IMG/VR virus record: IMGVR_UViG_3300045988_173816
Span: 192,001-256,000 of that record
Direction: 5' to 3' (one strand)
Source of the DNA: a virus
Length of the DNA stretch: 64,000 nucleotides
Part shown: positions 1 through 64,000 of the stretch, in pieces
Layout of the letters: the number at the start of each line of letters is the position of its first letter
Position numbering within the stretch: the first letter of the stretch is position 1
Program-made: the position numbers and the translations under genes
The notes under the pieces: model-generated
The model's input: only the letters and a program-made list of their open reading frames with translations
Databases searched by the model: none
Told to the model about the DNA's origin: nothing

Positions 1-1
1 A

Positions 2-1129
2 CCTATTGCTCAATCTCCAAATGAACCAGTTCATACAGTTCCAAATATTGAGGTTCAACCTCAAGGGGAGCAAGAGGGTATAGTTGAACCACTTAGCAGA
101 GTAGTGGATGAAAAAGTAGGGAAACCAGTAACTGTGACTCCTATTGAGAAACCTAAGTCAGACGGAAAACCAACTGTTAAACCTACTGCAACAGATGGTG
201 ATGATAACGCCCCAAGAGCAGGTGGTATTTCTCTAGTAGGTATTATTCAGTCGAATATAAATACTGTTCGAGTATTTAAACGTGGTATTTATTATGATGC
301 GACAAGTATTGCAGGTTATATTTTACGTAATGATGGTGTTGAAGAACTCGAAGTATTTGATGATGTTTTAGTTCCTCAAACTAAACCGAATATAGTTTAT
401 CAACAGAATACTAGTCTTTTATCTACAGCTAAAGATTTAAAGTCTGTACCTAAAGTTCCGTTTGCGATTGGGGAAACTCGCTACTTTACAAAACCGGCTT
501 TACTTGCTTTGAATGAGTCTTGTAAAGAGATTGGCTCTCGTATCGGTATCGGTGAAGCTCTTCCTGTTGTAGTAAGTCAGTTGATGGACTTGCACCCAGA
601 ATTAACTGAGGAGGTGGCGACAGATATTGCAAAAGACTTCAAATTTGCAATTCAAGTTCGTGAAGCAAGAGGTGAGGGTATTCTTGTCCCAGAAAACCCA
701 GAAGGTCTTTTTAGTCGTTTGTCCGTAGCTCTTGGTCTTGCTCTTTCACCAGAGACTTTGAAAGAAGAGGTTGCTCGACAATTATTGAAGAATAAATTAG
801 TAACAGATAAAACTCCAGAAGAGTTATTACTAATGTTGAAAGACCGTCTGAACTTGGCTTTACCTCAAGGTTTGTTACTACCTGTGGATTTGTTTGAAGA
901 GACATTTGAAGTTAAAGGTGCTCATAAAGCGGTTAAAGGTTCCAAAGTAAAACCTGAGTTTGAGCGTGTATTTGGTGTTTATAATGAGTACAACCAACCG
1001 AAGTCAAAACGCACACCAAGAGCGCAAACTCCTAAATCTGACAAAGAAACTAAAGGTTCAACCAAACTAGCGGTATCTTCACAAGTCAATTTGGCGAATT
1101 ACTTTGCACATTATACACAAGGGAAATAA
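2..1129 (+). CDS. hypothetical protein, N-terminus upstream of the window
   Basis: The frame is open from base 2 (no stop before the GTG at 104 used by the ORF track) to TAA 1127-1129. Pro/Lys/Thr-rich linker followed by a globular-looking C-terminal part. A terminator follows. Confidence 0.6.
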   Translation, partial: PIAQSPNEPVHTVPNIEVQPQGEQEGIVEPLSRVVDEKVGKPVTVTPIEKPKSDGKPTVKPTATDGDDNAPRAGGISLVGIIQSNINTVRVFKRGIYYDATSIAGYILRNDGVEELEVFDDVLVPQTKPNIVYQQNTSLLSTAKDLKSVPKVPFAIGETRYFTKPALLALNESCKEIGSRIGIGEALPVVVSQLMDLHPELTEEVATDIAKDFKFAIQVREARGEGILVPENPEGLFSRLSVALGLALSPETLKEEVARQLLKNKLVTDKTPEELLLMLKDRLNLALPQGLLLPVDLFEETFEVKGAHKAVKGSKVKPEFERVFGVYNEYNQPKSKRTPRAQTPKSDKETKGSTKLAVSSQVNLANYFAHYTQGK

Positions 1130-1143
1130 TTTAAACTTAAGGA

Positions 1144-1168
1144 ACGCACCAAAGAGGTGCGTTTTTGT
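1144..1168 (+). terminator. rho-independent terminator
   Basis: Stem ACGCACC/GGTGCGT (1144-1150 / 1156-1162) followed by a T-run. Confidence 0.7.
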
Positions 1169-1202
1169 CTTGTTTAATTTTTAGCTTAAACCCTTATCAT
1201 TA

Positions 1203-1231
1203 TTGACTTTCTTATACATTTATGATATAAT
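1203..1231 (+). promoter_or_regulatory. sigma-A type promoter
   Basis: TTGACT (1203-1208), 17-bp spacer, TATAAT (1226-1231), with a TG extended -10. Confidence 0.6.
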
Positions 1232-1267
1232 AATTTAAAGTAAATAACAGAAAGTGAGGACTATTTT

Positions 1268-2389
1268 ATGGCAAAGAAACCTAAGAAGAAAAAAGCTGGA
1301 AATAAAAACTCCAAAATTGGTATTGTGTATACTCCATTTTCTATGATAAATCGAGTGAATGATTTATCTAAGTTAGAGGGGAAAGCAGAGCGTACACCGT
1401 TTGAGATGCAAACTCATGGTTTGATTACTGCTTTTGAATTTTTACATTTGTGGAAAGATGGCAAAATTGATGCTTCGTCATCTAGTCGTATTGGTTTGCA
1501 ACCGTATTTAGACCATTATGTAGGGGTGGCAGGGAGAATTACAGATGTTCGGAAGAGTAAAGAAGGGGTATCTCTCTTAATTTTAGACCCTTCATTAGTT
1601 GGTACGTTTGGAGTTCGAACCAAAGAAGAGGTGAAGACTTTAATTCAGGATTCTAAAGGGCAAACAAGTAAGAAGTTTCAAGAGTTTTCAACCCAATCTA
1701 TTTTTTCAAGTCATATTTGGTTATTTTTACCAGAAGTAGATGCTTCTTTATGTGATGACTTAGCTTTATATTTAGGTTCAGTGATTACATTTTACGCTAA
1801 GGTTGAGTTATATAAAGGTCGGGTTTCGACTTCGCACTTGAAGAAAGCTCCAAAATATGGTCTAGGTTCGATTATTTTGAATACTGGGTATATGCCTTAT
1901 ATGGTTCAGAAAATGAAAGAGGACAACTTTAAACCAGCTCGTAGTGGTCGTAGGATGCAGATGATGTTTGGTAATTTTAGAGTTGGTTCTACGAAAGATT
2001 TTGATTTACGTTATGCAGTTGGTTTGATTGAAGGTTCTAAGGTAGAACCTTATGTTGATTGGTATATGAAACTTCGAAAATTAAGCCAAAAAGGTCATTG
2101 GAATTGGATTTATAATTACATGATGGATAATGATCCAGAAGTAACAAAGGGTTTGACAAAATATACCAATTTTAAACCTTTAATGTTAAAGAATAAGGCT
2201 TCTTTACCAACTGGTATAGAAGCTCTTAAACGTAGGAAATATTTACGAGATGCTGCAATAGCAGAGGGTTCTATAGATATTTATAGCAAACCAACTGAGG
2301 ACTTTGATATGTTTTGTAATTTCTCAGATTGTGTGGAATATTTAGAAAAGCTAGGCATTAAAGACATTCCTACGGATGATTATATTTAA
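1268..2389 (+). CDS. hypothetical protein with Lys-rich N-terminus
   Basis: ATG preceded by a GTGAGGA RBS. N-terminus MAKKPKKKKAGNK. No family recognised. Confidence 0.7.
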   Translation: MAKKPKKKKAGNKNSKIGIVYTPFSMINRVNDLSKLEGKAERTPFEMQTHGLITAFEFLHLWKDGKIDASSSSRIGLQPYLDHYVGVAGRITDVRKSKEGVSLLILDPSLVGTFGVRTKEEVKTLIQDSKGQTSKKFQEFSTQSIFSSHIWLFLPEVDASLCDDLALYLGSVITFYAKVELYKGRVSTSHLKKAPKYGLGSIILNTGYMPYMVQKMKEDNFKPARSGRRMQMMFGNFRVGSTKDFDLRYAVGLIEGSKVEPYVDWYMKLRKLSQKGHWNWIYNYMMDNDPEVTKGLTKYTNFKPLMLKNKASLPTGIEALKRRKYLRDAAIAEGSIDIYSKPTEDFDMFCNFSDCVEYLEKLGIKDIPTDDYI

Positions 2390-2401
2390 TTAAATTTGAG
2401 T

Positions 2402-2429
2402 GAGATACTTGACAAAGTATCTCATTTTT
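2402..2429 (+). terminator. rho-independent terminator
   Basis: Stem GAGATAC/GTATCTC (2402-2408 / 2417-2423) then TTTTT. Confidence 0.65.
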
Positions 2430-2437
2430 GGTATAAT
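2409..2437 (+). promoter_or_regulatory. sigma-A type promoter overlapping the terminator loop
   Basis: TTGACA (2409-2414), 17 bp, TATAAT (2432-2437). Confidence 0.6.
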
Positions 2438-2473
2438 TAAAACAGTTAATCGGAAATAATTGGAGGACTAAAA

Positions 2474-3184
2474 ATGCACAATATCGTTTATATGACTGAG
2501 AATCAAGAACGTAGCACTCAGTTAGAAGTAGAGAGTAACTTAGCGAGTTTGTTTAGAGAACGTGTTGAAACGAAAGGAAAACAAGTTCGTTCATTCTGTC
2601 GTAATATTGCCCTTTGGGGAACCCTTGCGGTATCTACATGGTTTTTAGCAGATATGGGGTTTAAAGTTTATCAACAGCAATTACTAGAGTCTACTTATAT
2701 GGTGAGATTTTTGGTTTCTGCGTTGAATTTACTAGTTTTCTTAGGTGGGTTTGCTATTTTTTATACTGTTCTTTATCATGTAAGTCGCACAGTTGTAGGG
2801 TATAGTTTGTTTAGCAAAGGGGAGTATTATGAGCGTAAGGACTCGACTTACTTACCTTTGTTTGATAAAATTGAGCGTGGGTACTATACCGATATGTATT
2901 TCCAGTCGAATGGTTACATTTCTAAGGTTTCTGTACCAAATCATTACGCACAACGTTTTGACTTAGGTGCAAGTGTACCGGTAGATGTAGCGATTTTAAT
3001 GTACAAACAATCAGGTAGAGTTCGTTTGGTAACAAATTGCGTTGGTTCACGTGCTAACAATGAACAAGAGTTTCAAGAAACTTTGTGGAGACATAATGGC
3101 AACTTAAAAGCTCCACAATCCATGTATCAACAAGCAGTATCAGGCTCGGTATCCTCTACTCAAAAACAAATTGGATGGAAATAA
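2474..3184 (+). CDS. membrane protein (2 predicted TM helices), function unknown
   Basis: GGAGGA RBS. Hydrophobic stretches IALWGTLAVSTWFLADMGF and FLVSALNLLVFLGGFAIFYTVLY. Confidence 0.7.
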   Translation: MHNIVYMTENQERSTQLEVESNLASLFRERVETKGKQVRSFCRNIALWGTLAVSTWFLADMGFKVYQQQLLESTYMVRFLVSALNLLVFLGGFAIFYTVLYHVSRTVVGYSLFSKGEYYERKDSTYLPLFDKIERGYYTDMYFQSNGYISKVSVPNHYAQRFDLGASVPVDVAILMYKQSGRVRLVTNCVGSRANNEQEFQETLWRHNGNLKAPQSMYQQAVSGSVSSTQKQIGWK

Positions 3185-3193
3185 AATTTTATA

Positions 3194-3222
3194 TTGCATT
3201 TGCTAAACTTTTATGATAAAAT
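3194..3222 (+). promoter_or_regulatory. sigma-A type promoter driving a short non-coding transcript
   Basis: TTGCAT (3194-3199), 17 bp, TAAAAT (3217-3222), with a TG extended -10. Confidence 0.5.
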
Positions 3223-3228
3223 ATTAGC

Positions 3229-3301
3229 GTACTCAAATGAGTACCTAATCGTCTAAACTGCGGGAGAATAGTGGGGTTTACCTACTATTTTCTTTTCTTT
3301 T
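3229..3301 (+). ncRNA. candidate small RNA (about 70 nt) between its own promoter and terminator
   Basis: Hairpin GTACTC-AAAT-GAGTAC (3229-3244). Second hairpin AATAGTGGG/CCTACTATT (3267-3289) followed by a T-rich run. No ORF. A separate promoter for the next gene follows. Confidence 0.35.
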
Positions 3302-3330
3302 GTTTAGATTACTTTATTTGCTCCAAAATC

Positions 3331-3359
3331 TTGCTATTTACCTTAATTTGTGATATAAT
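3331..3359 (+). promoter_or_regulatory. sigma-A type promoter
   Basis: TTGCTA (3331-3336), 17 bp, TATAAT (3354-3359). Confidence 0.55.
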
Positions 3360-3387
3360 AAAGAAAATTAGAAACGAGGATTTTCAA

Positions 3388-4005
3388 ATGGATTTATTAA
3401 ATGCACGTCCTTACCCAGTAGGTAAGCAAACAACTTTGTTTTACATTGATGAACATTACAAAGTTCAACCTTTTACATTAACAAAAGAAATGGTCGAAAG
3501 TGGTTCTGTAAAACTCCCTCGCTTACCTTATGACAAAGCAGACTATGAGCTATTTATCAAAGACGGACAAGTATTCACAGACCATTTTGATGGAGTTATT
3601 GTTACTTACACAGAAAAAGAGACTGGTGAGGTTCATGAACCTTTTGCTTGTGGTTTTCTATCTTGGGGGTTGAGAGACATTTTCCCTAAACTCGGCAAGA
3701 TTTTGAGAGACAAGATTAAGCAAGAAAATAAAGAGCGGTATCCTCTCATTCGTTTTGTAGATGCGAAGAATTCTGAGGTCTTGACTGAGTTCCCTTATGA
3801 GAACTACTACAAAGAGAATTTTGCTTTAAATGAAATGGGCAAATATATTGAAAAAGGTCACTCAGATATTTTAGTTCAAGCTTACGATAACGAAACAGAC
3901 GGGTGGATTTCATTTGAATTGAGACGTTTGAATTATTGGAAAGCTCTAGATGATACAAAAGCGCAAGTACAAGAAGAAGTACAACGTTGGAAAGAAGACT
4001 TGTAA
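3388..4005 (+). CDS. hypothetical protein
   Basis: The internal ATG at 3388 (MDLLNARPY...) lies downstream of the 3331-3359 promoter and an ACGAGGA RBS. The track's start at 3271 would run through the terminator and promoter. Confidence 0.65.
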   Translation: MDLLNARPYPVGKQTTLFYIDEHYKVQPFTLTKEMVESGSVKLPRLPYDKADYELFIKDGQVFTDHFDGVIVTYTEKETGEVHEPFACGFLSWGLRDIFPKLGKILRDKIKQENKERYPLIRFVDAKNSEVLTEFPYENYYKENFALNEMGKYIEKGHSDILVQAYDNETDGWISFELRRLNYWKALDDTKAQVQEEVQRWKEDL

Positions 4006-4006
4006 A

Positions 4007-5323
4007 ATGGCAGAGAATTTTGCAACGAAATATAGGTCAAAAGATGTAGACCGCTATATTGGGAATGAATTGGCAGTTCAAAAGTTGCTAAATCGTTTCT
4101 CTTCAAAAGATGGTGAAGACTATCCAGCTTGTGTGATGATTTCAGGAGCAAGTGGGTGTGGGAAAACAACAATGGCTCGTATGTCTACGAAGTTGGTGTT
4201 GTGTGAAAATAAGCAACTTCGTAAGTGGAAGAACAGAGAGTACTTATTGCCTTGTAACCAATGTAAGATGTGTCAAGACTTAAATGAGTATATTGAGACG
4301 GCAGATGCTACTAAACTTTTCTCAGTAAAAGAATTAGACTCTTCTAAAACAGGGAATGTAGATGCAGTACGACAATTTGTAGAGTCTGCTTCTATGCCTA
4401 AACTCTTTGCAGGCTATTCTATTTTTATCTTTGACGAGTGTCATTTGATTTCTAAGATGGGTCAAGAAAGCATGTTGAAGTTTACTGAGGATGCTCCTCC
4501 TAAGTCTATCTTTTTCTTCTGTACAACAGACCCTCAAAAAATGTTAGAACCTTTGACAACTCGAATGGACTTGAAGATTGAGATTGAACTTCCAAGTGTC
4601 GCAGATAATGTGGAACTTATGAAATGGGTATCGACTGAGGAAGGTTTTGCTTTTGACAAACCAGCTTTAGAGTTAATTGCAGTTCGTTCAAATTGCGTCT
4701 TTCGTCAGTCATTGAAACAACTTGAGAATGTTTACCGTTCTTATGGTTCTGTACGTTATGATGATGTTGTTAAGGTTCTTGATGTAAATAAGCATAGAGG
4801 TTTATACTTTGACTTCTTAGATTTTCTAAGAACAAAGAACACGGTTCTTTATACAAAGACCGTACACACTGCTATGTTGGAAGTAGGGTTGAAGAATTTT
4901 GTTGAAGGTTTGAGAGAGTTTGTTAAACGGGGTCTTTACATTTCGTTAGGTCTTCATGTACTTGGTATAACAAAAGATGAGATTAAGTTATATAAAGACT
5001 TATTTGACAAGTTCAACAATGAAGAGATTTTGGCTTTGCTAGAGTTTTTGAATAACTTAGGTAGAGGTGATATAGAAACTCAACTGCTTTTATTGGGGTA
5101 TCGAGGTCTTTTAGCATCTCAACCTTCTCCTTCTTCTGTTTCTTCTGTAGGAGTTGAAGTCAATGAAATTAAAGGAAATGAGCGTGTGTTGGAAAGCAAA
5201 CAAATGTCTCAAAAGCATAAGGAAGATAAAGCAGCACACCATGAAAATACGGTTGTAAAAGCGCAGTTAGATTTAAAACCTATGTCTACTGATCAAATGG
5301 CAGATATGTTTGAAAGTTTATAA
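4007..5323 (+). CDS. AAA+ clamp-loader subunit, DNA polymerase III gamma/tau (DnaX)-like
   Basis: KYRSKDVDRYIGNE N-terminal box. Walker A GASGCGKTT. Cys cluster CNQCKMC. Walker B IFIFDECH. Sensor FFFCTT and LTTR. The ATG at 4007 sits 1 nt after the preceding stop. Confidence 0.8.
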   Translation: MAENFATKYRSKDVDRYIGNELAVQKLLNRFSSKDGEDYPACVMISGASGCGKTTMARMSTKLVLCENKQLRKWKNREYLLPCNQCKMCQDLNEYIETADATKLFSVKELDSSKTGNVDAVRQFVESASMPKLFAGYSIFIFDECHLISKMGQESMLKFTEDAPPKSIFFFCTTDPQKMLEPLTTRMDLKIEIELPSVADNVELMKWVSTEEGFAFDKPALELIAVRSNCVFRQSLKQLENVYRSYGSVRYDDVVKVLDVNKHRGLYFDFLDFLRTKNTVLYTKTVHTAMLEVGLKNFVEGLREFVKRGLYISLGLHVLGITKDEIKLYKDLFDKFNNEEILALLEFLNNLGRGDIETQLLLLGYRGLLASQPSPSSVSSVGVEVNEIKGNERVLESKQMSQKHKEDKAAHHENTVVKAQLDLKPMSTDQMADMFESL

Positions 5324-5349
5324 ACAATACAATAAAGTGAGGTACTTTT

Positions 5350-5616
5350 ATGTTAGAAAAAGTTTTAAAGCGCAGAGTTACGAAAGACTTTGCTGAGACG
5401 TATGAGGTTGTTCCTAGTCGGAACGGTTTTAGAGAATTTTATATTCTCTTTCCATGGGAAGAGCAAGACCCACTTATCGGTGATTACTTCACCTTAGTGA
5501 ACAAATTAGAGGAACAAAACATTTTATTTAGTGTCTACCCTATGCCTTCAGATAGACCTGAGGTCAAAGAACGCTTTTTGAAACATAGTCCGATTATTCG
5601 TGAGGTTATTTTATGA
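5350..5616 (+). CDS. 88-aa protein, paralog A of a duplicated pair
   Basis: GTGAGG RBS. Clearly homologous along its full length to the 6087-6353 product (MLEKVLKRRVTKDFAETYE...VYPMPSDRPE). Confidence 0.7.
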   Translation: MLEKVLKRRVTKDFAETYEVVPSRNGFREFYILFPWEEQDPLIGDYFTLVNKLEEQNILFSVYPMPSDRPEVKERFLKHSPIIREVIL

Positions 5617-6050
5617 TAAATTTAGCAGAATTTCCTTCTTTGGGTTTAACTGATCTTGCAGTAAATGATTTAGCTTTGTTTTATGAGTTGGTTGATAATA
5701 AACTACTATTAAGAGTAAATCTATACTGGCTTTTGGAAATACAGGTTAAGAAATTAAATTCTGTTTATTTTCCTAATAAATTTAAGTCCTCTAAAGGTTC
5801 ACATAATGTTGTTGGTTCTATTTACTTGTTTAAGGATGTTGTACCTAACTTAGCAGAATTTATCCGTAGGTTAGATGTTGAGGAAAGTAACTTTCACGGT
5901 CGTTTGCAGGCTATACAAACTTTCAATTATGTCTCTGCAAGGTATTCTAGTGCATTAGAAGTGTTTCGAGCAGATTTACCCTTAGTTGAAGATTTATTCG
6001 AACTTTATTGGATTCTATCCAACCACCTAAGACAGTTAGGTTTTAGTTAA
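5613..6050 (+). CDS. hypothetical protein
   Basis: ATGA start/stop overlap with the upstream gene. No family recognised. Confidence 0.6.
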   Translation: MINLAEFPSLGLTDLAVNDLALFYELVDNKLLLRVNLYWLLEIQVKKLNSVYFPNKFKSSKGSHNVVGSIYLFKDVVPNLAEFIRRLDVEESNFHGRLQAIQTFNYVSARYSSALEVFRADLPLVEDLFELYWILSNHLRQLGFS

Positions 6051-6086
6051 TTGAGTATTTACTAGAGTAGATGTGAGGGTGATTTT

Positions 6087-6353
6087 GTGTTAGAAAAAGT
6101 GTTGAAACGTAGAGTCACTAAGGACTTTGCTGAGACTTATGAGGCAGTCTCTTATAAAAAGGGGTATCGAGAGTTTTATATTGTCTACCCTATTGAGAAA
6201 GATGACCCTTTGTTGGTTGATTACTTTGACTTAGTGGATAGATTAGAAAAGAAACATATTATCTTTAGCGTTTATCCGATGCCTTCAGATAGACCAGAAA
6301 TTAAAGAACAGTTTTTAGCTAACAATCCAATAATCAAAGAAGTTATTTTATAA
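6087..6353 (+). CDS. 88-aa protein, paralog B of a duplicated pair
   Basis: GTG start after a GTGAGGG RBS. Paralog of the 5350-5616 product. Confidence 0.7.
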   Translation: MLEKVLKRRVTKDFAETYEAVSYKKGYREFYIVYPIEKDDPLLVDYFDLVDRLEKKHIIFSVYPMPSDRPEIKEQFLANNPIIKEVIL

Positions 6354-6370
6354 AGAAAGCGAGAAAATAA

Positions 6371-6643
6371 ATGTCAAAAGAAGTTGTAGTATTTACAAAA
6401 CGCCCAGAAGATGGTGTTTGTCCTGGGTGTAAAATGTTGAAGCGTAAATTAGACGCAGAGGGTATCCCGTACAAGGAAATTCCTTACGACCCAAGCAATG
6501 AAGAACATGTTAGCATTGTTAAGGGTGCTAAATTTAGCGCACTTCCAGTAACTTTCCCAAATGGTTTGGAAGATCCTTCTTCTGCCTTTAGTGGATTCGC
6601 ACCTAATAAGGTAGCAGAAATCAAGCGTAGCTTGGCTTTATAA
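6371..6643 (+). CDS. glutaredoxin-like / NrdH-like redoxin
   Basis: VVVFTKRPEDGVCPGCKMLKRKLDAEGIPYKEI: thioredoxin-fold start with a CPGC redox motif, about 90 aa. Confidence 0.6.
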   Translation: MSKEVVVFTKRPEDGVCPGCKMLKRKLDAEGIPYKEIPYDPSNEEHVSIVKGAKFSALPVTFPNGLEDPSSAFSGFAPNKVAEIKRSLAL

Positions 6644-6650
6644 CAAATGG

Positions 6651-6682
6651 CAAGAGGAGTTAGTATGCTTCTCTTGTTTTTT
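6651..6682 (+). terminator. rho-independent terminator
   Basis: Stem CAAGAGGAG/GCTTCTCTTG followed by TTTTTT. Confidence 0.7.
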
Positions 6683-6694
6683 GTGAAGAAATGC

Positions 6695-57057: not shown

Positions 57058-57058
57058 C

Positions 57059-57112: not shown

Positions 57113-57622
57113 ATGAAAGTCAGTAAAGAAAAAGCAATAGTAACATTTAATTATCCGTATCAGTTGTATGGAATTAGTTTTGCTCTTGATGAGGTTAACT
57201 ATGAGCATCTGTATAAAATGTTTATTAGGTATTGTTCTCGTTATGATGGTTTTGCCTTTAGCGTTTTAAGTAAAAACCCCGATTTCAGCTATTTCACCAA
57301 AGATAAACAGACGGTGCGAAGCCAGATAGATTTGATTTTCAATGAAGTATTAGCTCTGGACTTAGATGCTGAAGGGTTTTGTGAATTTGGTACGATTGAG
57401 TCCGACAACGGTGTTAAAGTACATGTTTGTTTTAGCAAGCTTTCCGATACAAGTGGTAGAGTGACTAAAGAAAATTCTTTTGCAGCACCTGTAATTCTGT
57501 TTGAGTTTAAACTTTCAGTACGTGGTGAAGATCGTCCAAAAGCTCGATTTCTAATGACCATTACAAAAGAAAAAGACTTGAAGCAAGGTTTACCTGATTG
57601 GGGTATTCAGTATGAAGATTAG
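57113..57622 (+). CDS. 169-aa protein, tandem paralog 1
   Basis: ATG at 57113 after AGGAGG. Homologous throughout to the next gene (KE.AIVTF.YPYQ...VRSQIDLIFNEVLALD...TKEKDLKQGLP.W). Confidence 0.65.
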   Translation: MKVSKEKAIVTFNYPYQLYGISFALDEVNYEHLYKMFIRYCSRYDGFAFSVLSKNPDFSYFTKDKQTVRSQIDLIFNEVLALDLDAEGFCEFGTIESDNGVKVHVCFSKLSDTSGRVTKENSFAAPVILFEFKLSVRGEDRPKARFLMTITKEKDLKQGLPDWGIQYED

Positions 57623-58106
57623 TAAAGAAACCGCAATAGTAACGTTCACTTATCCGTATCAGTCTCATGGGGATAGCTACTTTCTTGACGAAATTAACTA
57701 CGAAGATCTGTACAAGTTTTTCATTGATTATTGTACTTACTTTGACGGATTTGCCTTTAGTGCTTTAACTTCTAACACAACATTTGCTGATTTTACGGAA
57801 AACAAAGAGACAGTGAGAAGTCAAATTGATTTGATTTTTAATGAAGTATTAGCCTTAGATACAGATGCTAAGGGTTTTTACAAATACGGTACTGTAAAGT
57901 CTGAGAGAGGTCTTACTGTAGATGTTTGTTTTAGTAAGTTTTCGGATACAGAACCTAGAGTCGTTGATTATGGTTCTCATATTTCTCCTTTGATTGTCTT
58001 TAAGTTTGAACTTTCTTTTCTTGGTGAGAAACGCCCAGAATCTCGTTTTATGATGACAGTTACGAAAGAAAAAGACTTGAAACAAGGTTTACCTAATTGG
58101 AGGTAA
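57612..58106 (+). CDS. 164-aa protein, tandem paralog 2
   Basis: The start overlaps the end of paralog 1. See paralog 1. Confidence 0.65.
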   Translation: MKISKETAIVTFTYPYQSHGDSYFLDEINYEDLYKFFIDYCTYFDGFAFSALTSNTTFADFTENKETVRSQIDLIFNEVLALDTDAKGFYKYGTVKSERGLTVDVCFSKFSDTEPRVVDYGSHISPLIVFKFELSFLGEKRPESRFMMTVTKEKDLKQGLPNWR

Positions 58107-58112
58107 TATTAT

Positions 58113-58442
58113 ATGTTTAAATTATCAAACGGAAAAACATATTCCCGTTTAGAGATTTACTGCTTTGATGACTCGCTAGGTTATATAACGAAAACCCCAC
58201 AAGGGTATCATTTTACACTCGTCAAGTCTGAAAACCTCCGCCACAAGTTCACTTTGCTTAATTTGAGTGAACAATCTACCTCAGAAGAAATAAGAAACTG
58301 GATGAAGGGGTGCTTAACTATAACCGATTCACGCGCTAATAGAAGTGAATGTTATCCAAGCTGGTGTCGTACAATGGAAGATGAGATTTCGGTTTATTCT
58401 CACTTTCTTGATTGTGATATGAGGAGGTGGGAATATGTTTAA
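58113..58442 (+). CDS. HipA N-terminal-subdomain-like protein (HipS-like)
   Basis: 109 aa. SLGYITKTPQGYHFTL and EEIRNWMKGCLTITDSRAN resemble the HipA N-terminal pattern (vG.L....g.y.F.Y ... fF.nLLP). GGAGG RBS. Overlaps the kinase gene start. Confidence 0.45.
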   Translation: MFKLSNGKTYSRLEIYCFDDSLGYITKTPQGYHFTLVKSENLRHKFTLLNLSEQSTSEEIRNWMKGCLTITDSRANRSECYPSWCRTMEDEISVYSHFLDCDMRRWEYV

Positions 58443-59241
58443 ACCTACCTCAAGTTTAGGGTATCAACCAAAATACACTTCTCCTAATGGTGGTTATTGG
58501 TACAAAGAAGATTTTAAAGGTGGGGAAGCTTTTGTGGAAGTTTTAGTTTCTACTTTTCTAAGGTCTTGTAATTATATGACTTCTAAAGATTTTGTACCTT
58601 ACTACTTTAAACACACTTCAGTTGATTCTTTTGATTTAAGAACTTGTGTGTCTTCAAACTTCTTACAAAAAGGAGAGCAGTTCATTTCATTTAAAAACCT
58701 TTTGTCTTTAGTGCATCCTCCTACGGATACTTTAGTAGGTTTCGACTCTAAATTAGACTATATTAGTTCTGTTTTCCAACAAACGGTCGGTCAGTCTTTC
58801 CGAGAAGAACTGTTAAGGTTGTTGACGCTAGATGTTATGTTTAGAAACACAGATAGACACCTCTCCAATTTCGGTATTATTTTAACTCCTAACTGCTCTA
58901 TTCGGTTCGCCCCTATATTTGATAACGGACTTGCTTTAGGGGTCTCAGAAGGTGCTTATTTTGATTTAGACAACCTTATAAAAGGTTTCGGTTATAAAAT
59001 TAAACCTTATGAACTTGCGGTATCCACTTTATCTCCAAAAATTGATACTTCTTATTTTCCGTTTGATGTCCTTTATTTTGTTGAGGTAGTGGATAAAAAT
59101 ATTCCTAAGTCCAATCTATTGTTAGGTTTCTTAAATTTGTTGGTTTTGTATTATCCGACTGATTGCAAGGGTAGAGACACTAAAGAGGTTTTAGAGTCCG
59201 TATTTGGCGAATTTAGTAGAAAGAGATTTTTAAATGACTGA
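58435..59241 (+). CDS. HipA-family Ser/Thr kinase core (HipT-like, N-terminally truncated)
   Basis: SLGYQPKY (GxQxK loop). Catalytic MFRNTDRHLSNFGIIL and RFAPIFDNGLAL (D.H..N ... aP.yD). Confidence 0.7.
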   Translation: MFKPTSSLGYQPKYTSPNGGYWYKEDFKGGEAFVEVLVSTFLRSCNYMTSKDFVPYYFKHTSVDSFDLRTCVSSNFLQKGEQFISFKNLLSLVHPPTDTLVGFDSKLDYISSVFQQTVGQSFREELLRLLTLDVMFRNTDRHLSNFGIILTPNCSIRFAPIFDNGLALGVSEGAYFDLDNLIKGFGYKIKPYELAVSTLSPKIDTSYFPFDVLYFVEVVDKNIPKSNLLLGFLNLLVLYYPTDCKGRDTKEVLESVFGEFSRKRFLND

Positions 59242-59632
59242 TCAAGCTATGTCTAACGCTCAAGGTTTCAAAGTTTGGTACAACAATAGAAAACGAAGTA
59301 GTGTGGTGCTTTTAACTTTAGTTCTTATCTTTTTATTGACTAGTTTCTTACCTAGTTTTATTAAGAACTTCCCAACTTTAATTACCTATGTTTTTGGATT
59401 TTCGAAGGTTAATGCTTTTGTTCCTTTAAAGTTTACTTATTTTATACGTTTTAGCTTTATTTACTTGGTATCCGTTGGTTTTACTGCACTTATTGAAACA
59501 AATGAACTAGAACCTTATGACAATTTGACCTTTTTAATCTTCTCATTATTTATGGTTTTAGTAGTTGTAGTTGTTTCTTTAATAGGTTTCCTTTTTATTT
59601 CTGCAACGGTTCCAACTAATTTAATTAAATAA
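59234..59632 (+). CDS. small polytopic membrane protein (3-4 TM) coupled to the kinase gene
   Basis: The start overlaps the kinase stop. Hydrophobic segments VVLLTLVLIFLLTSFL, FIYLVSVGFTALI and FLIFSLFMVLVVVVVSLIGFLFI. Confidence 0.6.
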   Translation: MTDQAMSNAQGFKVWYNNRKRSSVVLLTLVLIFLLTSFLPSFIKNFPTLITYVFGFSKVNAFVPLKFTYFIRFSFIYLVSVGFTALIETNELEPYDNLTFLIFSLFMVLVVVVVSLIGFLFISATVPTNLIK

Positions 59633-59647
59633 GAAAGTGGTATTTAA

Positions 59648-59927
59648 AATGTTAACGAAGATTTAGACGAACTAATTGAAGACTACAACGAACGCTATCG
59701 CAACGCAAACGATTGGGTATTCTACGCTACAACAGAACTTGAACTAGAAGAAGCAAAAGCAAATAAAGCTCAATTAGTTCACGATTACTCTCAAGCTCTT
59801 TACGACTTCTTATGGGACAAACTTCCTCAACTAACTGCAAAAGATTGCATTGCTTTTGATTTAGTGCCTTATGGGGTGTGGAAACGGTTTAGTGGAAAAT
59901 TTGGTTTGATTTTAAAGAAAATTAAGG
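59648..59927 (+). pseudogene. 5' part of a gene split by the second IS607 copy (also lacks a usable start)
   Basis: Open frame NVNEDLDELIEDYNERYRN...GLILKKIK with no ATG/GTG/TTG start. The nearby ATG at 59649 is in another frame and stops after 5 codons. Fuses in frame to 61966-62330 if the IS is removed. Confidence 0.55.
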
Positions 59928-59951
59928 AGTAATCTCCTGTAAATAAATTTG

Positions 59952-59980
59952 TTGACAAAGATAATAACTTGTGCTAAAAT
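59952..59980 (+). promoter_or_regulatory. tnpA promoter, probably giving a leaderless mRNA
   Basis: TTGACA (59952-59957), 17 bp, TAAAAT (59975-59980). The ATG at 59987 lies 7 nt after the -10, and there is no RBS. Confidence 0.5.
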
Positions 59981-59986
59981 ATACTC

Positions 59987-60610
59987 ATGATTAAATTACA
60001 AGACATGGCTAACCGATTAGGTGTCAGCATAAAAACATTACAAAGATGGGATCGTGAGGGTATTTTAGTAGCTAAACGAACCCCAACTAATAGACGTTAT
60101 TACACAGAAGACCAATACTTGTCTTATGTAGGTAAATCTCAACCTAAAGGTTTAATTTTGGCTTACACAAGGGTATCCAGTAGAGGTCAAATAGATGATT
60201 TAATTTCACAAACAGAGTTTTTAAAGCAATTTGTAAATGCCAAAGGTGAGATTTTAGATGAAGTTATTTCAGATATAGGTTCTGGTCTTAACTATAACCG
60301 TAAGAATTGGAATAAATTACTTTTAGATTATGTAGCTAAAGGTTTGGTGAGTAAAATCTATATCACTTATAAAGACCGATTTGTTCGTTTTGGTTTTGAT
60401 TGGTTTGAGCGCTTTTGTAATTACTATAACTGTAAAATTGTAGTAGTGAAAAATGAAACTACCTCACCACAACAAGAATTGGTAGATGATTTAATTTCGA
60501 TTATCCATGTGTTTTCTTGTCGTATTTATGGTTTGAGAAAGTACAAGAAGGAGTTGAAGGACGATGAGAGCGTACAAGACAGAAATAGACCCAACTCCAA
60601 GTCAAATTGA
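59987..60610 (+). CDS. tnpA: IS607-family serine recombinase transposase
   Basis: MerR-like HTH LQDMANRLGVSIKTLQRWDREGIL. Catalytic AYTRVSSRGQIDDLISQ. YKDRFVRFGFDWFE. Confidence 0.85.
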   Translation: MIKLQDMANRLGVSIKTLQRWDREGILVAKRTPTNRRYYTEDQYLSYVGKSQPKGLILAYTRVSSRGQIDDLISQTEFLKQFVNAKGEILDEVISDIGSGLNYNRKNWNKLLLDYVAKGLVSKIYITYKDRFVRFGFDWFERFCNYYNCKIVVVKNETTSPQQELVDDLISIIHVFSCRIYGLRKYKKELKDDESVQDRNRPNSKSN

Positions 60611-61745
60611 GTTGATACATAAGACTTTTGGGTGTACTCGATATATTTACAACCAATTTGTATCTGAGAACTTAGAGAATTTAGCTTCGGATAAAGACTT
60701 TATTTCTGCTTTTGACTACTCAAAAAGAGTCAATAACGATCCTACTACACCTACTTGGTTAAAAGAAGTACCAAGTAAAGCAGTAAAACAAGCTTTAATT
60801 TATGCAGATAGGGCTTTTAAAGACTATTTTTATAAACGCAATGGTAAACCTAAGTTTAAAAAGAAAGGTTTAAGTGAGAGTTTCTACCTCATAGGAACTA
60901 TAAAAGTTGAGCGCCATCGTATATTTGTACCTGTTTTAAAGTGGCTTCGTTTGAAGGAGTTTGGCTATATTCCTAAGAACATCACCTCTGTAACAATTTC
61001 CATGAAAAATGGCAGATATTACATTTCTTGCTTATGTAAAGATGAAATTGATGAACGTATTCCTTTGTCTGACTACAATATGGGTATCGATTTTGGTCTG
61101 AAAGACCAATTTATTACAGAAGATAGAATTATACCTTCTATCAATAAGTCTTTGCGTATTAGAAAATTGGAACAACGTTTACGAAGAGAACAAAGAAAGT
61201 TGTCTCGTAAATATGAAGCAAATATGGTCGATAAGGTTTACTATCAATCCGGGGCTAAGAAAGGTCAACTTAAGTCTTATAAGTGGTTGAAACCTTTATC
61301 TGAGTGCAAGAATATTCAAAAGCAGAAATTGAAAGTAGCTCGTATCCGTGAGCGTTTAACTCGTATTCGAACGGAATATAATCGAAAAGCATTGCGTTCT
61401 TTAGTTTTAGAGCGAAAACCAAGCTCTATTACTATTGAAGACTTAGCAGTGTGTAATATGATGAAAAACCGTCATTTGAGTAAAACGATTTCAAAAGCGC
61501 AGTGGTATCAGTCTCGACTTTACTTAGAAAATTTGTGTAAAAAGCTAGGTATAAAATTGAGATTAGTAAGTAGATTTTATCCATCTAGTAAACTATGTTC
61601 GGATTGTGGTTTTAAGTATAAAGACTTGAAACTAAACGAAAGAGCTTGGACTTGTTCTAATTGTGGTAGTAAACATGATAGAGATGTTAATGCAGCCATC
61701 AATTTAGGACAATGTAAAGAATATACTGTATTGACTGCAGTTTAA
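60564..61745 (+). CDS. tnpB: TnpB RNA-guided nuclease
   Basis: MRAYKTEIDPTPSQ...TRYIYNQF. RuvC motifs MGIDFGLKD, TIEDLAVCNM and DRDVNAAINL. Zinc ribbon CSDCG...CSNCG. Confidence 0.85.
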   Translation: MRAYKTEIDPTPSQIELIHKTFGCTRYIYNQFVSENLENLASDKDFISAFDYSKRVNNDPTTPTWLKEVPSKAVKQALIYADRAFKDYFYKRNGKPKFKKKGLSESFYLIGTIKVERHRIFVPVLKWLRLKEFGYIPKNITSVTISMKNGRYYISCLCKDEIDERIPLSDYNMGIDFGLKDQFITEDRIIPSINKSLRIRKLEQRLRREQRKLSRKYEANMVDKVYYQSGAKKGQLKSYKWLKPLSECKNIQKQKLKVARIRERLTRIRTEYNRKALRSLVLERKPSSITIEDLAVCNMMKNRHLSKTISKAQWYQSRLYLENLCKKLGIKLRLVSRFYPSSKLCSDCGFKYKDLKLNERAWTCSNCGSKHDRDVNAAINLGQCKEYTVLTAV

Positions 61746-61963
61746 ATAGGTCACTACCGTGGGTTACACGGGAAGTTAAGTTTGTGGACTGTTATATCAA
61801 ATGAAAGTAGACTTTGCAGTTCAAACTGTAAAGACAAAATCAGACAGGATGAAGCAAGAAAAGTTCTAAAATAATTTAGAAAGGTCATGAAATATATGTT
61901 TGAGTATATTTTGTGTAACAGTTGCATAATGTTCGTTAAACATTTAATTTCGTTTTTGGTTTG
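61746..61963 (+). ncRNA. TnpB omega-RNA scaffold region of the second IS607 copy
   Basis: GTTATATCAAATGAAAGTAGAC (61791-61812) matches the IStron copy. Hairpin 61812-61833 lies at the equivalent position with a different sequence. The N-terminal 26 codons of track ORF 61887-62330 lie inside this region. Confidence 0.55.
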
Positions 61964-61965
61964 GG

Positions 61966-62330
61966 TATCCACTATTTTTGTAAGTTTTTCCCATAATCCT
62001 TTTTCAACTCTGACTGTTCCATTAGGAACAAATCCATTAAATGTAGATGATTCTAAGGTTGTAGCTTACTTGAAAGATAATCCAACCGTTGAATATACTT
62101 CTAACGTGGGTTTTGTTGATAAAGATGAAGACTACGACTTAGCTCGTCTTATGGGTAAAGTAGTGGTAGATATTCGGTATCGAGAGAAACACGTAGTTTC
62201 TGAAACAGATTCTTTAGAAGAAGTTCAAGATAAAATCAATAAGATTAAGTCTGTAACCTCTATCGACTCTGACGAAGTAGCTCTTGCACTGCTTGGTAAT
62301 ATGACAGAAACAGTGAAAGTTTCAGACTAG
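61966..62330 (+). pseudogene. 3' part of the gene split by the second IS607 copy
   Basis: The frame VSTIFVSFSHNPFSTLTVPLG...TETVKVSD has no plausible start after the IS junction. It is in frame with 59648-59927 after precise excision. Confidence 0.55.
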
Positions 62331-62343
62331 TAGTTTGATGTCC

Positions 62344-62372
62344 TTGACAATTCTTAATAGTTGTGCTAAATT
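62344..62372 (+). promoter_or_regulatory. sigma-A type promoter (upstream of a structured leader)
   Basis: TTGACA (62344-62349), 17 bp, TAAATT (62367-62372), with a TG extended -10. Confidence 0.5.
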
Positions 62373-62439
62373 ATTTAATAGACCATATAACAAACCTAAG
62401 ATTGAGTGAGTAAATAATATTTCTCGCTTTTTCTTTTTG

Positions 62440-62468
62440 TTGCATAATCTTAGGATTTGTGGTAAAAT
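62440..62468 (+). promoter_or_regulatory. second sigma-A type promoter
   Basis: TTGCAT (62440-62445), 17 bp, TAAAAT (62463-62468). Confidence 0.5.
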
Positions 62469-62512
62469 AATACAAATTAGCAGTTAAAATTATAGTTAGA
62501 AAGGAGAGTGTG

Positions 62513-62764
62513 ATGTCAACAGTAATTACAGTGAAGACCTATACTCAAGCAACGGTTGGTAAACCTATTGCTTTAATTGAAACTTCGTCATTTACAACAG
62601 AAAGTTTGCGTGAAGCTCTATTTTCATATTTCACAAAAATAGATGAAGTTACGTTACGAACATTTATGAGTGAATTAAATCGTTACGGGGTTGCTTATTT
62701 AACACATCAAAATTTGTTGATTCAAATTAGTTATATTGGTGCTTTCCCAGAAGTAGATTGGTAA
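62513..62764 (+). CDS. hypothetical small protein
   Basis: ATG at 62513 after an AAGGAGAG RBS. Confidence 0.6.
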   Translation: MSTVITVKTYTQATVGKPIALIETSSFTTESLREALFSYFTKIDEVTLRTFMSELNRYGVAYLTHQNLLIQISYIGAFPEVDW

Positions 62765-62770
62765 GAATAA

Positions 62771-63373
62771 ATGAGTGTAGTAGAGAATAAATTAAAAGAG
62801 ATAGGGGTATCCTCAGAGGTGTCTTATCTTTTTCCAAAACTTTGTACTTATTGCGATTTGGATTTGGGGTTAAGTTCTGACTTAACTGTTTTAAAATGTC
62901 CAAATCCTTTCTGCAGAGGGTTATACTATCAACGTGCAGTAACTTTTTGCGAGGTGTTAGGTTTAACTCAGTTTAGCTATAGCTTTTTTGAGCGTTTAGT
63001 AACTGAATTTGGTTGGAAGTCGGAGTTTATTTCTGAATTTTACAACCTAGATAAACTCTTGGTTGATATTTCAGATAATGAGTTTCGTTCACGTTTTGAA
63101 GTATTTAAGTCTGAGTTACAGAAGGTAAAAGAGAGTCTAACTTTAGAGCAGTATTTAACTTCATTAGCACTTCCGATGGTTGAGGATATTATTCCTACGC
63201 TTTGTGAACGCTATGATACATTGGACGAGTTTTATTCAGAGCTTGATATTGTATTGGACTTTGATGGTTATTTGACGATTTTTGGTTTGAGTATAGGTTC
63301 TGAGGATTTGATACTACGGTATCTCGAAATTTTCAATATTTATCGAAGAGATTTATTAGGTTATAAATTGTAG
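62771..63373 (+). CDS. protein resembling the LigA zinc-finger / HhH region
   Basis: FPKLCTYCDLDLGLSSDLTVLKCPNPFCRGLYYQRAVTFCEVLGL compares with E. coli LigA [52 protein letters not shown], as remembered. Confidence 0.4.
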   Translation: MSVVENKLKEIGVSSEVSYLFPKLCTYCDLDLGLSSDLTVLKCPNPFCRGLYYQRAVTFCEVLGLTQFSYSFFERLVTEFGWKSEFISEFYNLDKLLVDISDNEFRSRFEVFKSELQKVKESLTLEQYLTSLALPMVEDIIPTLCERYDTLDEFYSELDIVLDFDGYLTIFGLSIGSEDLILRYLEIFNIYRRDLLGYKL

Positions 63374-63405
63374 TTTAGACGGATGAGATTGGTGGTGAGC
63401 ATAAG

Positions 63406-63696
63406 ATGATGCTTGTAGTAGATAAGCGTTTTGTGGTTTTAGAATGGAAAACTACAAACCCAAACGTTTATATCGAGGATACAGTTGATTTTGATACGCG
63501 TATTGAGTTAACAAGAAGATTGAATAAAGATGTTTATGAAGTTGTAGTGGAAGAGATTCCAGATGGTGTTTTAAAGAATTTGGTTCATGAAAAGGTAACA
63601 GTTTTAGTAGTTCCAACGGAGGCTACTTTAACTTACTATGAACGAACAGGTAAAATTCCTGAATTTCTATTTGTGGAGAATATCTTAGGTGGTTAA
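63406..63696 (+). CDS. hypothetical small protein
   Basis: Clean ORF. No family recognised. Confidence 0.55.
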   Translation: MMLVVDKRFVVLEWKTTNPNVYIEDTVDFDTRIELTRRLNKDVYEVVVEEIPDGVLKNLVHEKVTVLVVPTEATLTYYERTGKIPEFLFVENILGG

Positions 63697-64000
63697 GTTA
63701 GGTCAAAAAGGACAAGAATTACTGCAGTATCTAACTGCGTTCTTCGATAAATACGTTGAAGGTGAAGGTTCTCTAAGTGTCCAAGTTAATTCAGAAGAAA
63801 CAACAGAAGAGCAAGCTTTATTTTTAAAGGAGAACAAAAAACTCTTAAAATCGGTTGGGTTACTAGATACAAGTCATTCTGTGAAAGACTTAGGTATGTC
63901 TAAACAAGAGCGAGAATTGGAGGGTTCTTTTTACACTCCTTTAGTTTGGGGTAGAAAAGCTCATGAACTTCTAAGTGACATTCCAAATTTGGAAGACTAT
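63689..64000 (+). CDS. partial CDS running off the window; possible N6-adenine DNA methyltransferase N-terminus
   Basis: GTG at 63689 overlaps the upstream stop, and the frame is open to base 64000. The segment EGSFYTPLVWGRKAHELL resembles the G.FYTP motif of gamma-class methyltransferases. Confidence 0.35.
   Translation, partial: MVKLGQKGQELLQYLTAFFDKYVEGEGSLSVQVNSEETTEEQALFLKENKKLLKSVGLLDTSHSVKDLGMSKQERELEGSFYTPLVWGRKAHELLSDIPNLEDY

Follow-up and report, generated by a model that had tools for sequence, protein, structure and literature searches.

A strand-locked and regularly spaced GGTATC word in a giant oral element, with a counterpart on plasmid pXO16: a possible replicon-private priming signal

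Introduction

Why should a six-letter word be written about a hundred times on one strand of a DNA and hardly at all on the other? The question is raised by a 64-kb stretch of viral-catalogue DNA (positions 192,001 to 256,000 of IMG/VR record IMGVR_UViG_3300045988_173816; here called the window), which belongs to an element of ~280 kb and corresponds to positions ~204-268 kb of a 284 kb contig from a human oral metagenome. A preliminary description of the window had pointed out the word, GGTATC, as frame-independent and almost confined to the plus strand, and had put forward four hypotheses: (a) a polar guide for a DNA translocase, (b) a Chi-like signal, (c) single-orientation evasion of restriction and (d) priming or nicking sites on the transferred strand. 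The evidence presented here is tentatively read, with a probability of roughly 0.4, as that of a priming signal private to the replicon, which a split primase resembling that of phage T7 would recognise on the plus strand in its single-stranded form.

Census of the GGTATC motif in the window

An exact census of the window gave 100 copies of GGTATC on the plus strand and a single copy of its reverse complement GATACC, so that the earlier tally of about 100 to one, made by eye, proved not to be inflated. The heptamer GGTATCC occurs 40 times and its reverse complement GGATACC never; the 40 heptamer starts given previously were correct except for two that were off by one (34394 rather than 34395, and 39455 rather than 39454). 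No other hexamer in the window has as strong a strand skew as GGTATC. As had been reported, the base preceding the motif is mostly G (50 copies) or C (33 copies), the two making up 83%, and the base following it is C in 40 copies and T in 27.

These numbers are far from those expected. From mononucleotide composition, 14.4 forward and 9.3 reverse copies of GGTATC are expected in the window; a second-order Markov model predicts 14.6, and shuffling of codon order gives 14.8±3.7. Synonymous-codon shuffling within genes, the check that the preliminary description had set for the motif, reproduced neither the hexamer (24.6±4.4 expected, the highest of 1000 shuffles reaching 41; z=17.2) nor the heptamer (4.2±1.7 expected; z=21.4). 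The forward motif is found 4-7 fold above codon-aware nulls, and the codon-aware expectation of GATACC is 6.4±2.3 (z=-2.3). The 18 single-mismatch variants of GGTATC all have observed/expected ratios of 0.2-2.2, taken as at or below the expected level, and for this reason all six positions of the word matter. Within group A the motif has 6-8 informative positions.

The copies are split 37/24/37 across the three reading frames, with two further copies being intergenic, which confirms the frame independence. As for the claim that the motif makes use of disfavoured codons, ATC is indeed rare for isoleucine (117 codons against 767 of ATT, with 37 of these 117 sitting inside the motif), but GTA is common (489 copies). 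Given the codon-aware nulls, the use of all frames and the uniform position of copies along genes, the conclusion that the motif is selected at the nucleic-acid rather than the protein level is fully supported. The runner-up among the skewed words, CTGAGG, was considered as a second signal and rejected as a codon or dipeptide artefact, since all 37 of its window copies lie in a single reading frame (xCT-GAG-G). Strand skew of (C)TGAGGA is seen in all lineages, including L046, L049, L108 and L109.

Spacing of the copies and polarity of the element

The distribution of the copies is more even than random, as had been suspected: the gap lengths have a coefficient of variation (CV) of 0.58, compared to 0.98±0.09 for random placement, with none of 5000 simulations giving a value as low. 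Gaps shorter than 190 bp number three where 25.4 are expected, and just two (85 and 115 bp) are shorter than 150 bp, in line with the near absence of such gaps reported earlier. The mean gap is 634 bp and a gamma fit to the gaps has a shape of 3.4. A copy is present in 42 of the 46 genes of at least 500 nt, which bears out the statement that nearly every gene of this size holds one, and the four empty genes compare with 9.8 under a Poisson expectation. The copies are spread evenly along the genes and show no positional preference within them.

All 67 genes of the window are encoded on the plus strand, tightly packed over 93% of the sequence. The motif strand is the G- and T-rich strand and the sense strand of every gene. 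Motif polarity is constant across four separated blocks of a 278 kb oral contig. A genuine minus-strand gene, which would have separated the polarity of transcription from that of replication, was sought in over 600 kb of sampled group-A relatives and none was seen. Probing with multi-copy TnpB, look-ups of exact proteins and a single walking step likewise revealed no switch of polarity, a point that was settled on the pXO16 circle described below.

Words that are both hyper-abundant and evenly spaced bring to mind the uptake sequences of Haemophilus (uptake signal sequences, USS) and Neisseria (DNA uptake sequences, DUS). These occur about once per kb, in genes, in all frames, evenly spaced and variable between lineages, but in both orientations, and they serve the uptake of double-stranded DNA by competent cells. 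The present motif differs in that 98-100% of its copies lie on one strand, that of a conjugative plasmid.

Lineage-specific words and turnover of sites

Dozens of relatives of 200-290 kb are present in IMG/VR and other assemblies. All close relatives keep the motif, with 35-42 forward and 0-4 reverse copies of GGTATC per 21.6 kb. Deeper lineages were found through homologs of a zinc-ribbon protein and of the DnaB-like helicase encoded in the window, and (G)GGTATC is retained by relatives down to 49% helicase identity, with one copy every 285–840 bp and always with regular spacing. These mean gaps are of the scale of Okazaki fragments. In lineage L046, GGTATC has a forward to reverse ratio of 71:2, with GGGTATCT at 32:0; in L107, GGGTATC stands at 36:0; and in L108 the ratio is 70:0 despite a GC skew of 0.06. 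As L108 is nearly skewless, the strand lock does not follow from compositional skew. The enrichment over codon-aware nulls is also seen in the deeper lineages, and 200 kb of pooled non-redundant DNA contains 361 forward copies (49 expected) and 7 reverse copies (27 expected).

Regular spacing is likewise shared, with a gap CV of 0.42-0.72 across the motif-bearing lineages that is significant in nearly all of them and borderline in one (L029, P ~0.06). The largest gaps measure 647-2365 bp in most loci and reach 2.2-3.1 kb in two; in one lineage the largest gap within 20 kb is just 647 bp.

A sister oral lineage (lineage C, four contigs) carries the word (T)CAGGGGTAG(T) at 148:0. This word follows the sign of the GC skew, and its density in noncoding DNA is at least as high as in coding DNA. 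Reassignment of a stop codon was tested as the source of a frame bias in lineage C and was rejected.

Not all giant elements possess such a word. Groups B and D showed no motif of this type, and skewed words such as ATGGTA, seen in group B and in lineage L109, were discarded as compositional, none of them rising above Markov nulls. L109 (Logan SRR15409999_361) has an extreme GC skew (0.38) without a dense motif. In 16.6 kb of Streptococcus halichoeri DNA sampled via Cas9, GGTATC occurs twice forward and twice in reverse. A further lineage, P0017, was sought in IMG/VR and was absent from it.

Comparison of two clades that are ~73% identical in DNA showed 11 alignable sites in common, 13 present only in the window and 5-6 present only in the other clade. 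Apart from one single-base indel, the clades differ at these sites by point substitutions, which often change an amino acid, and lost sites often have a lineage-specific substitute 40-190 bp away. Judged from these alignments, such turnover is the signature of selection acting on density and spacing and not on individual positions.

Mobile genes add to this picture. The solo tnpB gene is free of the motif where ~2.5 copies would be expected, as the preliminary description had noticed, and homologs of it were absent from IMG/VR; this gives a faint hint that it arrived recently and has yet to acquire the motif. Insertion sequences (IS) of the IS607 type are always co-oriented with the genes. Copies of the window's IS607-type elements were compared with those at ~9400-12800 of loci L033 and L034, and the copies residing within the otherwise motif-less group D elements were found to keep GGTATC, supplying most of the few copies that group D has. 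Since these sites persist in group D, the motif is a property of the replicon lineage rather than of the host background. The presence of IS607 with these sites in group D also indicates that the IS has passed from one co-resident giant element to another.

The same phenomenon on plasmid pXO16

The nearest plasmid-borne relatives of the zinc-ribbon protein are encoded on plasmids of ~350 kb in Bacillus thuringiensis, which are copies of pXO16, i.e. pBTHD789-1, NC_018516 (PMC9673590, PMC6199540). The copy analysed here (NZ_CP045024.1) is a complete circle of 349,211 bp. Approximately 25 collinear proteins are common to pXO16 and to the window with its flanks, with 20-50% identity (tblastn). The shared backbone comprises VirB4-like and FtsK-like ATPases, SpoVG, SNF2, the DnaB-like helicase, the zinc-ribbon protein (a primase-type zinc-binding domain, ZBD), a RuvC-like resolvase, a ParB-HNH protein, PolA and a clamp loader, and the order of these genes is the same in lineages L107 to L109 and in pXO16.

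The one-strand architecture is also shared, with 455 of 455 annotated features of pXO16 located on one strand, and so is the dense polar word, although the word here is GGGGTA. It occurs 658 times forward and five times in reverse on the circle, against forward expectations of 130 (Markov), 61 (composition) and 273±9 (synonymous shuffle). The extended AGGGGTA stands at 461:2, and the logo reads [A/T]GGGGTA[G/T]. Each of fourteen 25 kb bins contains 37-52 copies of GGGGTA and has a GC skew of +0.14 to +0.24, with no switch in polarity of the word anywhere on the complete circle. The gaps have a mean of 530 bp, a maximum of 2,071 bp and a CV of 0.71 (1.00±0.04 at random). The constant gene strand and sign of GC skew imply unidirectional replication or another strand asymmetry of the whole replicon.

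In pXO16 the inverted word is about as frequent as expected (5 copies against a codon-aware expectation of 6.1±1.8), and the asymmetry there is entirely one of forward enrichment. Such a pattern suits a signal that brings a benefit where it occurs but does no harm in inverted form. It also bears on the idea that the word is held in one orientation to evade Type III or Type ISP restriction, with its enrichment being incidental. A precedent exists in phage T7, in which 36 EcoP15I sites all have the same orientation (PMC3874151), this too being a 6-mer in a genome of co-directional genes. Furthermore, palindromic restriction sites are scarce in the window (GATC 35 against 149-204 expected, GGCC 2 against 14-63, GAATTC 2 against 15-21), which is a classic signature of restriction avoidance. 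However, the T7 case is read as avoidance, whereas positive enrichment and control of spacing are seen here. The preliminary description had already remarked that evasion leaves the enrichment unexplained; 4-7 fold enrichment, regular spacing and compensatory turnover all fall outside it, the inverted word occurs at its expected frequency in pXO16, and this explanation is considered very improbable.

A co-resident plasmid of 360 kb in the same strain (p1) has GGGGTA at 6:0, where 4.5 copies are expected, and the motif is deemed replicon-specific because this plasmid shows no enrichment. The same comparison speaks to a Chi-like signal, which would attenuate a helicase-nuclease, either the AddAB/RexAB of the host or an enzyme of the element, and so protect a giant replicon of low copy number. 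The motif resembles Chi in being over-represented and co-oriented with replication, in the orientation of active Chi, and Chi too is read as single-stranded DNA. Both over-representation and sensitivity to long gaps would be expected to be favoured by such a role, and repair genes are numerous (a UvrD-like helicase, a DHH protein, the RuvC-like resolvase and a ligase). Chi sequences have strand skews well below 98-100%, a modest enrichment and no reported regular spacing, and the skew found here thus appears more extreme. The sampled DNA yielded no enzyme of the AddAB/RecBCD type and none of Type III. A reader of host origin is unlikely for a word that varies by lineage, is specific to the replicon and is missing from the co-resident plasmid and from group D. 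Hypothesis (b) of the preliminary description is accordingly disfavoured and a Chi-like role is held to be improbable.

Around 90 copies of GGGGTA in pXO16 lie 3-7 nt upstream of ATG starts in a Shine-Dalgarno-like position, a number that rivals that of genes using GGAGG. Ribosome binding was rejected as the explanation of the motif, as it accounts for just ~14% of the copies in pXO16 and for no copy in the oral elements; coding copies beyond the Shine-Dalgarno-like ones number ~490, where roughly 105 are expected. A broader RNA-level role would have the motif act in the non-template strand or as GGUAUC in mRNA, for an antitermination or processivity factor or for the processing or protection of RNA, over transcription units that are very long and co-directional. 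The location of the motif on the sense strand of a fully co-oriented replicon, its lack of enrichment in noncoding DNA in group A and its doubling as Shine-Dalgarno-like sites in pXO16 would all suit such a role. Nevertheless, no candidate reader was identified, the sites have no positional preference within genes, the noncoding density in lineage C and pXO16 is equal to or higher than the coding density, and the motif is never near start codons in the oral lineages examined. In addition, we know of no RNA signal that requires regular spacing every 300-800 nt. The probability of an RNA-level role is judged to be low.

Candidate readers encoded by the element

The zinc-ribbon protein is a stand-alone protein of the DnaG type. 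It scores 32.1 bits against PF01807 (gathering cut-off 24.9) and matches the Aquifex primase (2au3, E=5e-5) as well as several phage primase PHROGs, and its CPFH...CFGCG signature is unchanged in every lineage. The homologs, 17 in number, are all of 188-214 aa and have no TOPRIM catalytic domain, which makes this protein a candidate for the template-specificity subunit of a split primase. Comparison of its sequence between motif-bearing and motif-less lineages yielded no informative difference. A stand-alone TOPRIM protein of 262 aa is encoded by pXO16, with a 36%-identical oral homolog in L035, both scoring above the PF13155 (Toprim_2) cut-off. The ZBD and TOPRIM genes are ~80-130 kb apart, an arrangement that is conserved from Bacillus to the oral elements.

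The AlphaFold2 model of the helicase (mean predicted local distance difference test score, pLDDT, 82) shows an all-helical DnaB-type N-terminal domain, of the type to which primases dock, and a RecA-like C-terminal domain. Three proteins were ruled out as carriers of the primase catalytic domain: the helicase, whose N-terminus is all-helical and not TOPRIM; a 470-aa protein, which consists of tandem DNA-binding modules; and a 310-aa protein, which is RuvC-like. With a family-A polymerase of 1307 aa encoded just downstream of the window, the family appears to hold a T7-like replisome in pieces, i.e. a DnaB-like helicase, a ZBD, a TOPRIM subunit and a family-A polymerase.

It has been described that the ZBD sets template specificity in both DnaG and T7 primases, that the DnaG of Firmicutes starts its primers at the middle base of d(CTA)/d(TTA), and that ZBD mutants of the T7 primase shift recognition from d(GTC) to d(GTA) (PMC2978363). 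The T7 primase sites 5'-(G/T)2GTC-3' yield pppACCC/ACCA primers (PMC12839067). The core common to the motif-bearing lineages, GGGTA or GGTA, corresponds to the GGGTC of T7 with a changed 3' cryptic base. The likeness therefore extends over short G-rich words, a zinc-ribbon and TOPRIM primase acting on a hexameric helicase, a family-A polymerase and specificity set by the ZBD. The differences are that the primase parts are here in separate genes, that the word is of 6-9 nt and not 5, and that a 4-7 fold enrichment with regular spacing extends over 280-350 kb, whereas sites in T7 occur at about chance level.

The second candidate reader is the FtsK/SpoIIIE-family ATPase, and the main rival explanation is that the motif is a polar guide for this presumed transfer motor: as duplex DNA it would load and orient a one-way pump around the circle, in the manner of the FtsK-orienting polar sequences (KOPS), the SpoIIIE recognition sequences (SRS) or the repeats recognised by TraB. 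The TraB recognition repeats of Streptomyces, which direct an FtsK-family motor, are clustered at a single locus. KOPS and SRS are strand-polar G-rich words of 7-8 nt, the present motifs are G-rich 7-9-mers, and the lineage C word has as much information as would suit a domain that binds double-stranded DNA. The FtsK-like ATPase adjoins VirB4 in all lineages and in pXO16, and a single polarity around the full circle is what a one-way pump would need. It has been reported that pXO16 has no identified relaxase or origin of transfer (oriT), that its FtsK-like ATPase is essential, and that it moves 350 kb in about 4 minutes and mobilises plasmids lacking oriT and at least 791 kb of chromosome (PMC9673590).

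Several observations argue against such a guide. In the motor protein, Pfam detects only the FtsK_SpoIIIE motor domain (residues 504-629), the C-terminal 203 aa remaining blank at E<=10, and a gamma or winged-helix domain is undetectable. By published criteria, KOPS/SRS occur in the dif region around once every 16 kb and at the least once every 40 kb (PMC3384302), compared to one per 0.3-0.8 kb (285-840 bp) here; this is 15-50 times the published density, at a cost to coding and with little added benefit per site. KOPS flip at the origin and at dif, in contrast to the one polarity around the whole circle seen here. Non-permissive copies occur in pXO16 about as often as expected (5 against 6.1), and L109 keeps the motor without having the motif. 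To our knowledge, regular spacing is not a feature of KOPS. Of hypothesis (a), the conserved FtsK-like motor thus stands, while the failure to detect a gamma domain, the density and the lack of counter-selection of the inverted site speak against it, and the guide is regarded as unlikely, though the strongest of the alternatives. That the same code is the long-sought cis-acting signal for the conjugation of pXO16 would be as novel as the co-evolved priming code considered below.

A third set of enzymes could make the motif a site of strand-specific nicking or modification, for instance by the ParB-HNH nuclease or by a methyltransferase marking one strand. Phage genomes of the T5 type have single-strand interruptions. 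A ParB_N-HNH protein is found in all lineages, and a C5 methyltransferase, the family-A polymerase and a ligase are present in the element. On the other hand, hundreds of nicks per genome would be hazardous, the enzymes are not linked to the motif, and L109 retains the HNH protein in the absence of the motif, making this proposal quite improbable.

A priming signal as the favoured reading

Priming is favoured among the four hypotheses because the element-encoded split primase exists. It is, at the odds given above, the best explanation of positive selection on one strand, spacing on the Okazaki scale, turnover, replicon specificity and the joint occurrence of a T7-like word and replisome. The motif being specific to the replicon, and missing both from the co-resident plasmid and from group D elements that share IS607, speaks in its favour. 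The priming half of hypothesis (d) is thus supported by the split primase genes. Its other half, the transferred strand, is indistinguishable from a lagging-strand template, because the whole replicon has one polarity. A G/T-rich sense strand conventionally carries the leading-strand sequence and hence would be expected to serve as the lagging-strand template.

Under this proposal, the plus strand would be exposed in single-stranded form, whether it is the lagging-strand template while replication runs in one direction or the transferred strand during its discontinuous conversion. If the plus strand is the lagging-strand template, the DnaB-like helicase would travel along it in the 5'->3' direction. 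The ZBD would scan this strand for 5'-(S)GGTA-TC-3', or for 5'-(A)GGGGTA(G)-3' in the sister lineage and pXO16, and the TOPRIM subunit would start an RNA primer opposite the T of GTA, with a predicted primer of pppACC... A word of 6-9 nt would arise by chance only every 4-5 kb or more, and selection would write new sites into overlong gaps. The filling of such gaps is proposed to account for the high density, the regular spacing and the turnover with nearby replacement.

It is possible, if doubtful, that primase specificity and genome sequence have co-evolved in these replicons, giving GGGGTA(G) in some lineages and GGGTATC in others as a code for a three-piece T7-like primase, so that each replicon would be copied or converted only by its own machinery and incoming DNA, the solo tnpB for instance, would be 'unwritten'.

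A number of points weigh against priming. The link between the proteins and the motif is drawn from gene content and sequence. The T7 genome has 177 primase sites where ~144 are expected by chance, with no comparable enrichment (arithmetic from PMC12839067). The words are also long, with 6-8 informative positions in group A and 9-11 nt (~14 bits) in lineage C; known primase recognition words are of 3-5 nt. L109 encodes the same module, including the zinc-ribbon protein, yet has GGTATC at only 12:5 with a gap CV of 0.96. The inverted site is mildly depleted in the oral window (1 against 6.4 expected), which priming does not predict. The polarity of transcription is fully confounded with that of replication. 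Finally, the lack of a known relaxase and oriT in pXO16, together with its essential FtsK-like ATPase, lends real weight to the translocase alternative.

Novelty and significance

Strand-polar words and primase sites are already known kinds of signal. What appears to be new is the combination of a strand lock of 98-100% (100:1, 361:7, 148:0 and 658:5 across the family), a copy every 0.3-0.8 kb, even spacing, words that differ between lineages and a single polarity over a circle of 280-350 kb. No mention of such a motif was found in the paper describing the Inocles (giant oral elements, discussed below), in two reviews of pXO16 or by keyword searches, a scope that excludes Makart et al. 2015 (Plasmid 80:8). 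The Inocle paper mentions neither a motif nor a primase (PMC12340149).

If the motif is a priming code, primase specificity would have visibly shaped a whole large genome, with spacing on the Okazaki scale, a word that changes from lineage to lineage and a cost to protein coding, and the motif would be a direct sequence read-out of lagging-strand mechanics. We know of no earlier case of primase specificity shaping a whole large genome. Should the motif prove to guide the FtsK-like motor, it might be the cis-acting element that is still wanting in pXO16 conjugation and help to explain how this plasmid mobilises DNA lacking oriT. In either case, uncultured giant oral elements are now linked to a cultured and genetically tractable plasmid, which makes the question open to experiment. 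The motif may also be employed as a fingerprint, to find members of the family in metagenomes, to mark recent acquisitions and to trace IS607 copies that have moved elsewhere.

Gene content and relationship to known elements

Most genes of the window have no known family. Those that are recognisable include a transfer set of Gram-positive type (a CHAP hydrolase with the VirB4-like and FtsK-like ATPases) and a replication and repair set; features are listed in Table 1.

Table 1. Features of the window and of related loci (window coordinates unless another locus is named)
Feature	Location	Strand	Basis or remark
GGTATC array, 100 copies, consensus S-GGTATC-C/T	545..63323	+	mean gap 634 bp; 3 frames
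Sole GATACC copy in the window	37396..37401	+	exact census
Clamp-loader-like AAA+, DNA polymerase III delta-prime/gamma type	3950..5323	+	PF13177 E=1.7e-15; 36% identity to pXO16 homolog
IS607-type element (serine recombinase and TnpB), 3 motif copies	9255..11040	+	columns conserved between IS copies
VirB4-like conjugation ATPase	27157..29337	+	NCBIfam conju_CD1110; 33% identity to pXO16, E=6e-109
FtsK/SpoIIIE-family ATPase, presumed coupling/transfer motor	29532..32021	+	30% identity to pXO16 homolog
Solo tnpB, strain-specific insertion without motif copies	35215..36826	+	absent from 9 close relatives
DnaB-like replicative helicase	43108..44700	+	Pfam DnaB_C
Hypervariable 470-aa protein, tandem small MerR/BldC/Par-like DNA-binding modules	44693..46105	+	AlphaFold2
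CHC2 zinc-ribbon protein (DnaG-type, stand-alone), ~208 aa as called in relatives	47005..47655	+	PF01807
RuvC-like resolvase, conserved replication/recombination module	47655..48587	+	phrog_159; pXO16 homolog present
ParB_N and HNH nuclease, family-conserved	51086..52726	+	34% identity to pXO16 HNH endonuclease
Second IS607-type element, 3 motif copies	59987..61745	+	
ZBD and TOPRIM loci	pXO16 33700-34272 and 161609-162394; window 47005-47655; L035 2619-3359		
GyrB-like/GyrA-like pair and NAD-dependent ligase in the replication module	L107 4495-8907; L108 4030-8534; pXO16 19338-24033		
UvrD-like helicase, C5 cytosine methyltransferase, actin-like protein and MucBP/LPXTG surface protein of the oral element	L037 22-1956, 6911-8206, 13498-14790; L029 11846-16558		

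The RuvC-like resolvase possesses invariant D-x-S-x3-T-G, EE and D-x2-D motifs. The topoisomerase pair of the replication module is missing at the corresponding position in the clade of the window.

The element resembles the Inocles, giant plasmid-like elements of oral streptococci, in its size class, its VirB4/VirD4-type genes and its many IS elements. Inocles are described as having a GC content of 32% (24% in the delta group) and switches of open reading frame (ORF) orientation at the origin and terminus, with the marker protein InoC being of about 454 aa and having an N-terminal PF13814 domain (Kiguchi et al. 2025, PMC12340149). The present element differs in its GC content of 36% and in that no switch of ORF orientation was seen in the sampled DNA; neither InoC nor PF13814 was detected in the ~82 kb read of its contig. 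It is for this reason described as Inocle-like and not as an Inocle. Near-identity searches with 24 kb of the window against plasmid and phage collections returned zero matches, and no relatives of the helicase were found in 185,579 species-representative genomes. The latter is consistent with reports that such oral elements disappear in culture.

The hypervariable 470-aa protein was modelled with a mean pLDDT of 77, and its modules show local fold matches to 8csh and 6ama (MerR/BldC/pSK1-Par-like). A Pfam family search found nothing for this protein, and PF13814 in particular gave no match even at E<=1. On the basis of its model, it is possibly a binder of the origin or of iterons, or an incompatibility determinant. 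Its alleles are discrete, with 41-100% identity, and lie beside a helicase that is 98% identical.

Elsewhere, the oral element encodes the UvrD-like helicase, C5 cytosine methyltransferase and DHH protein referred to above, together with an actin-like (ParM/MreB-type) protein and a MucBP/LPXTG surface protein of 1570 aa.

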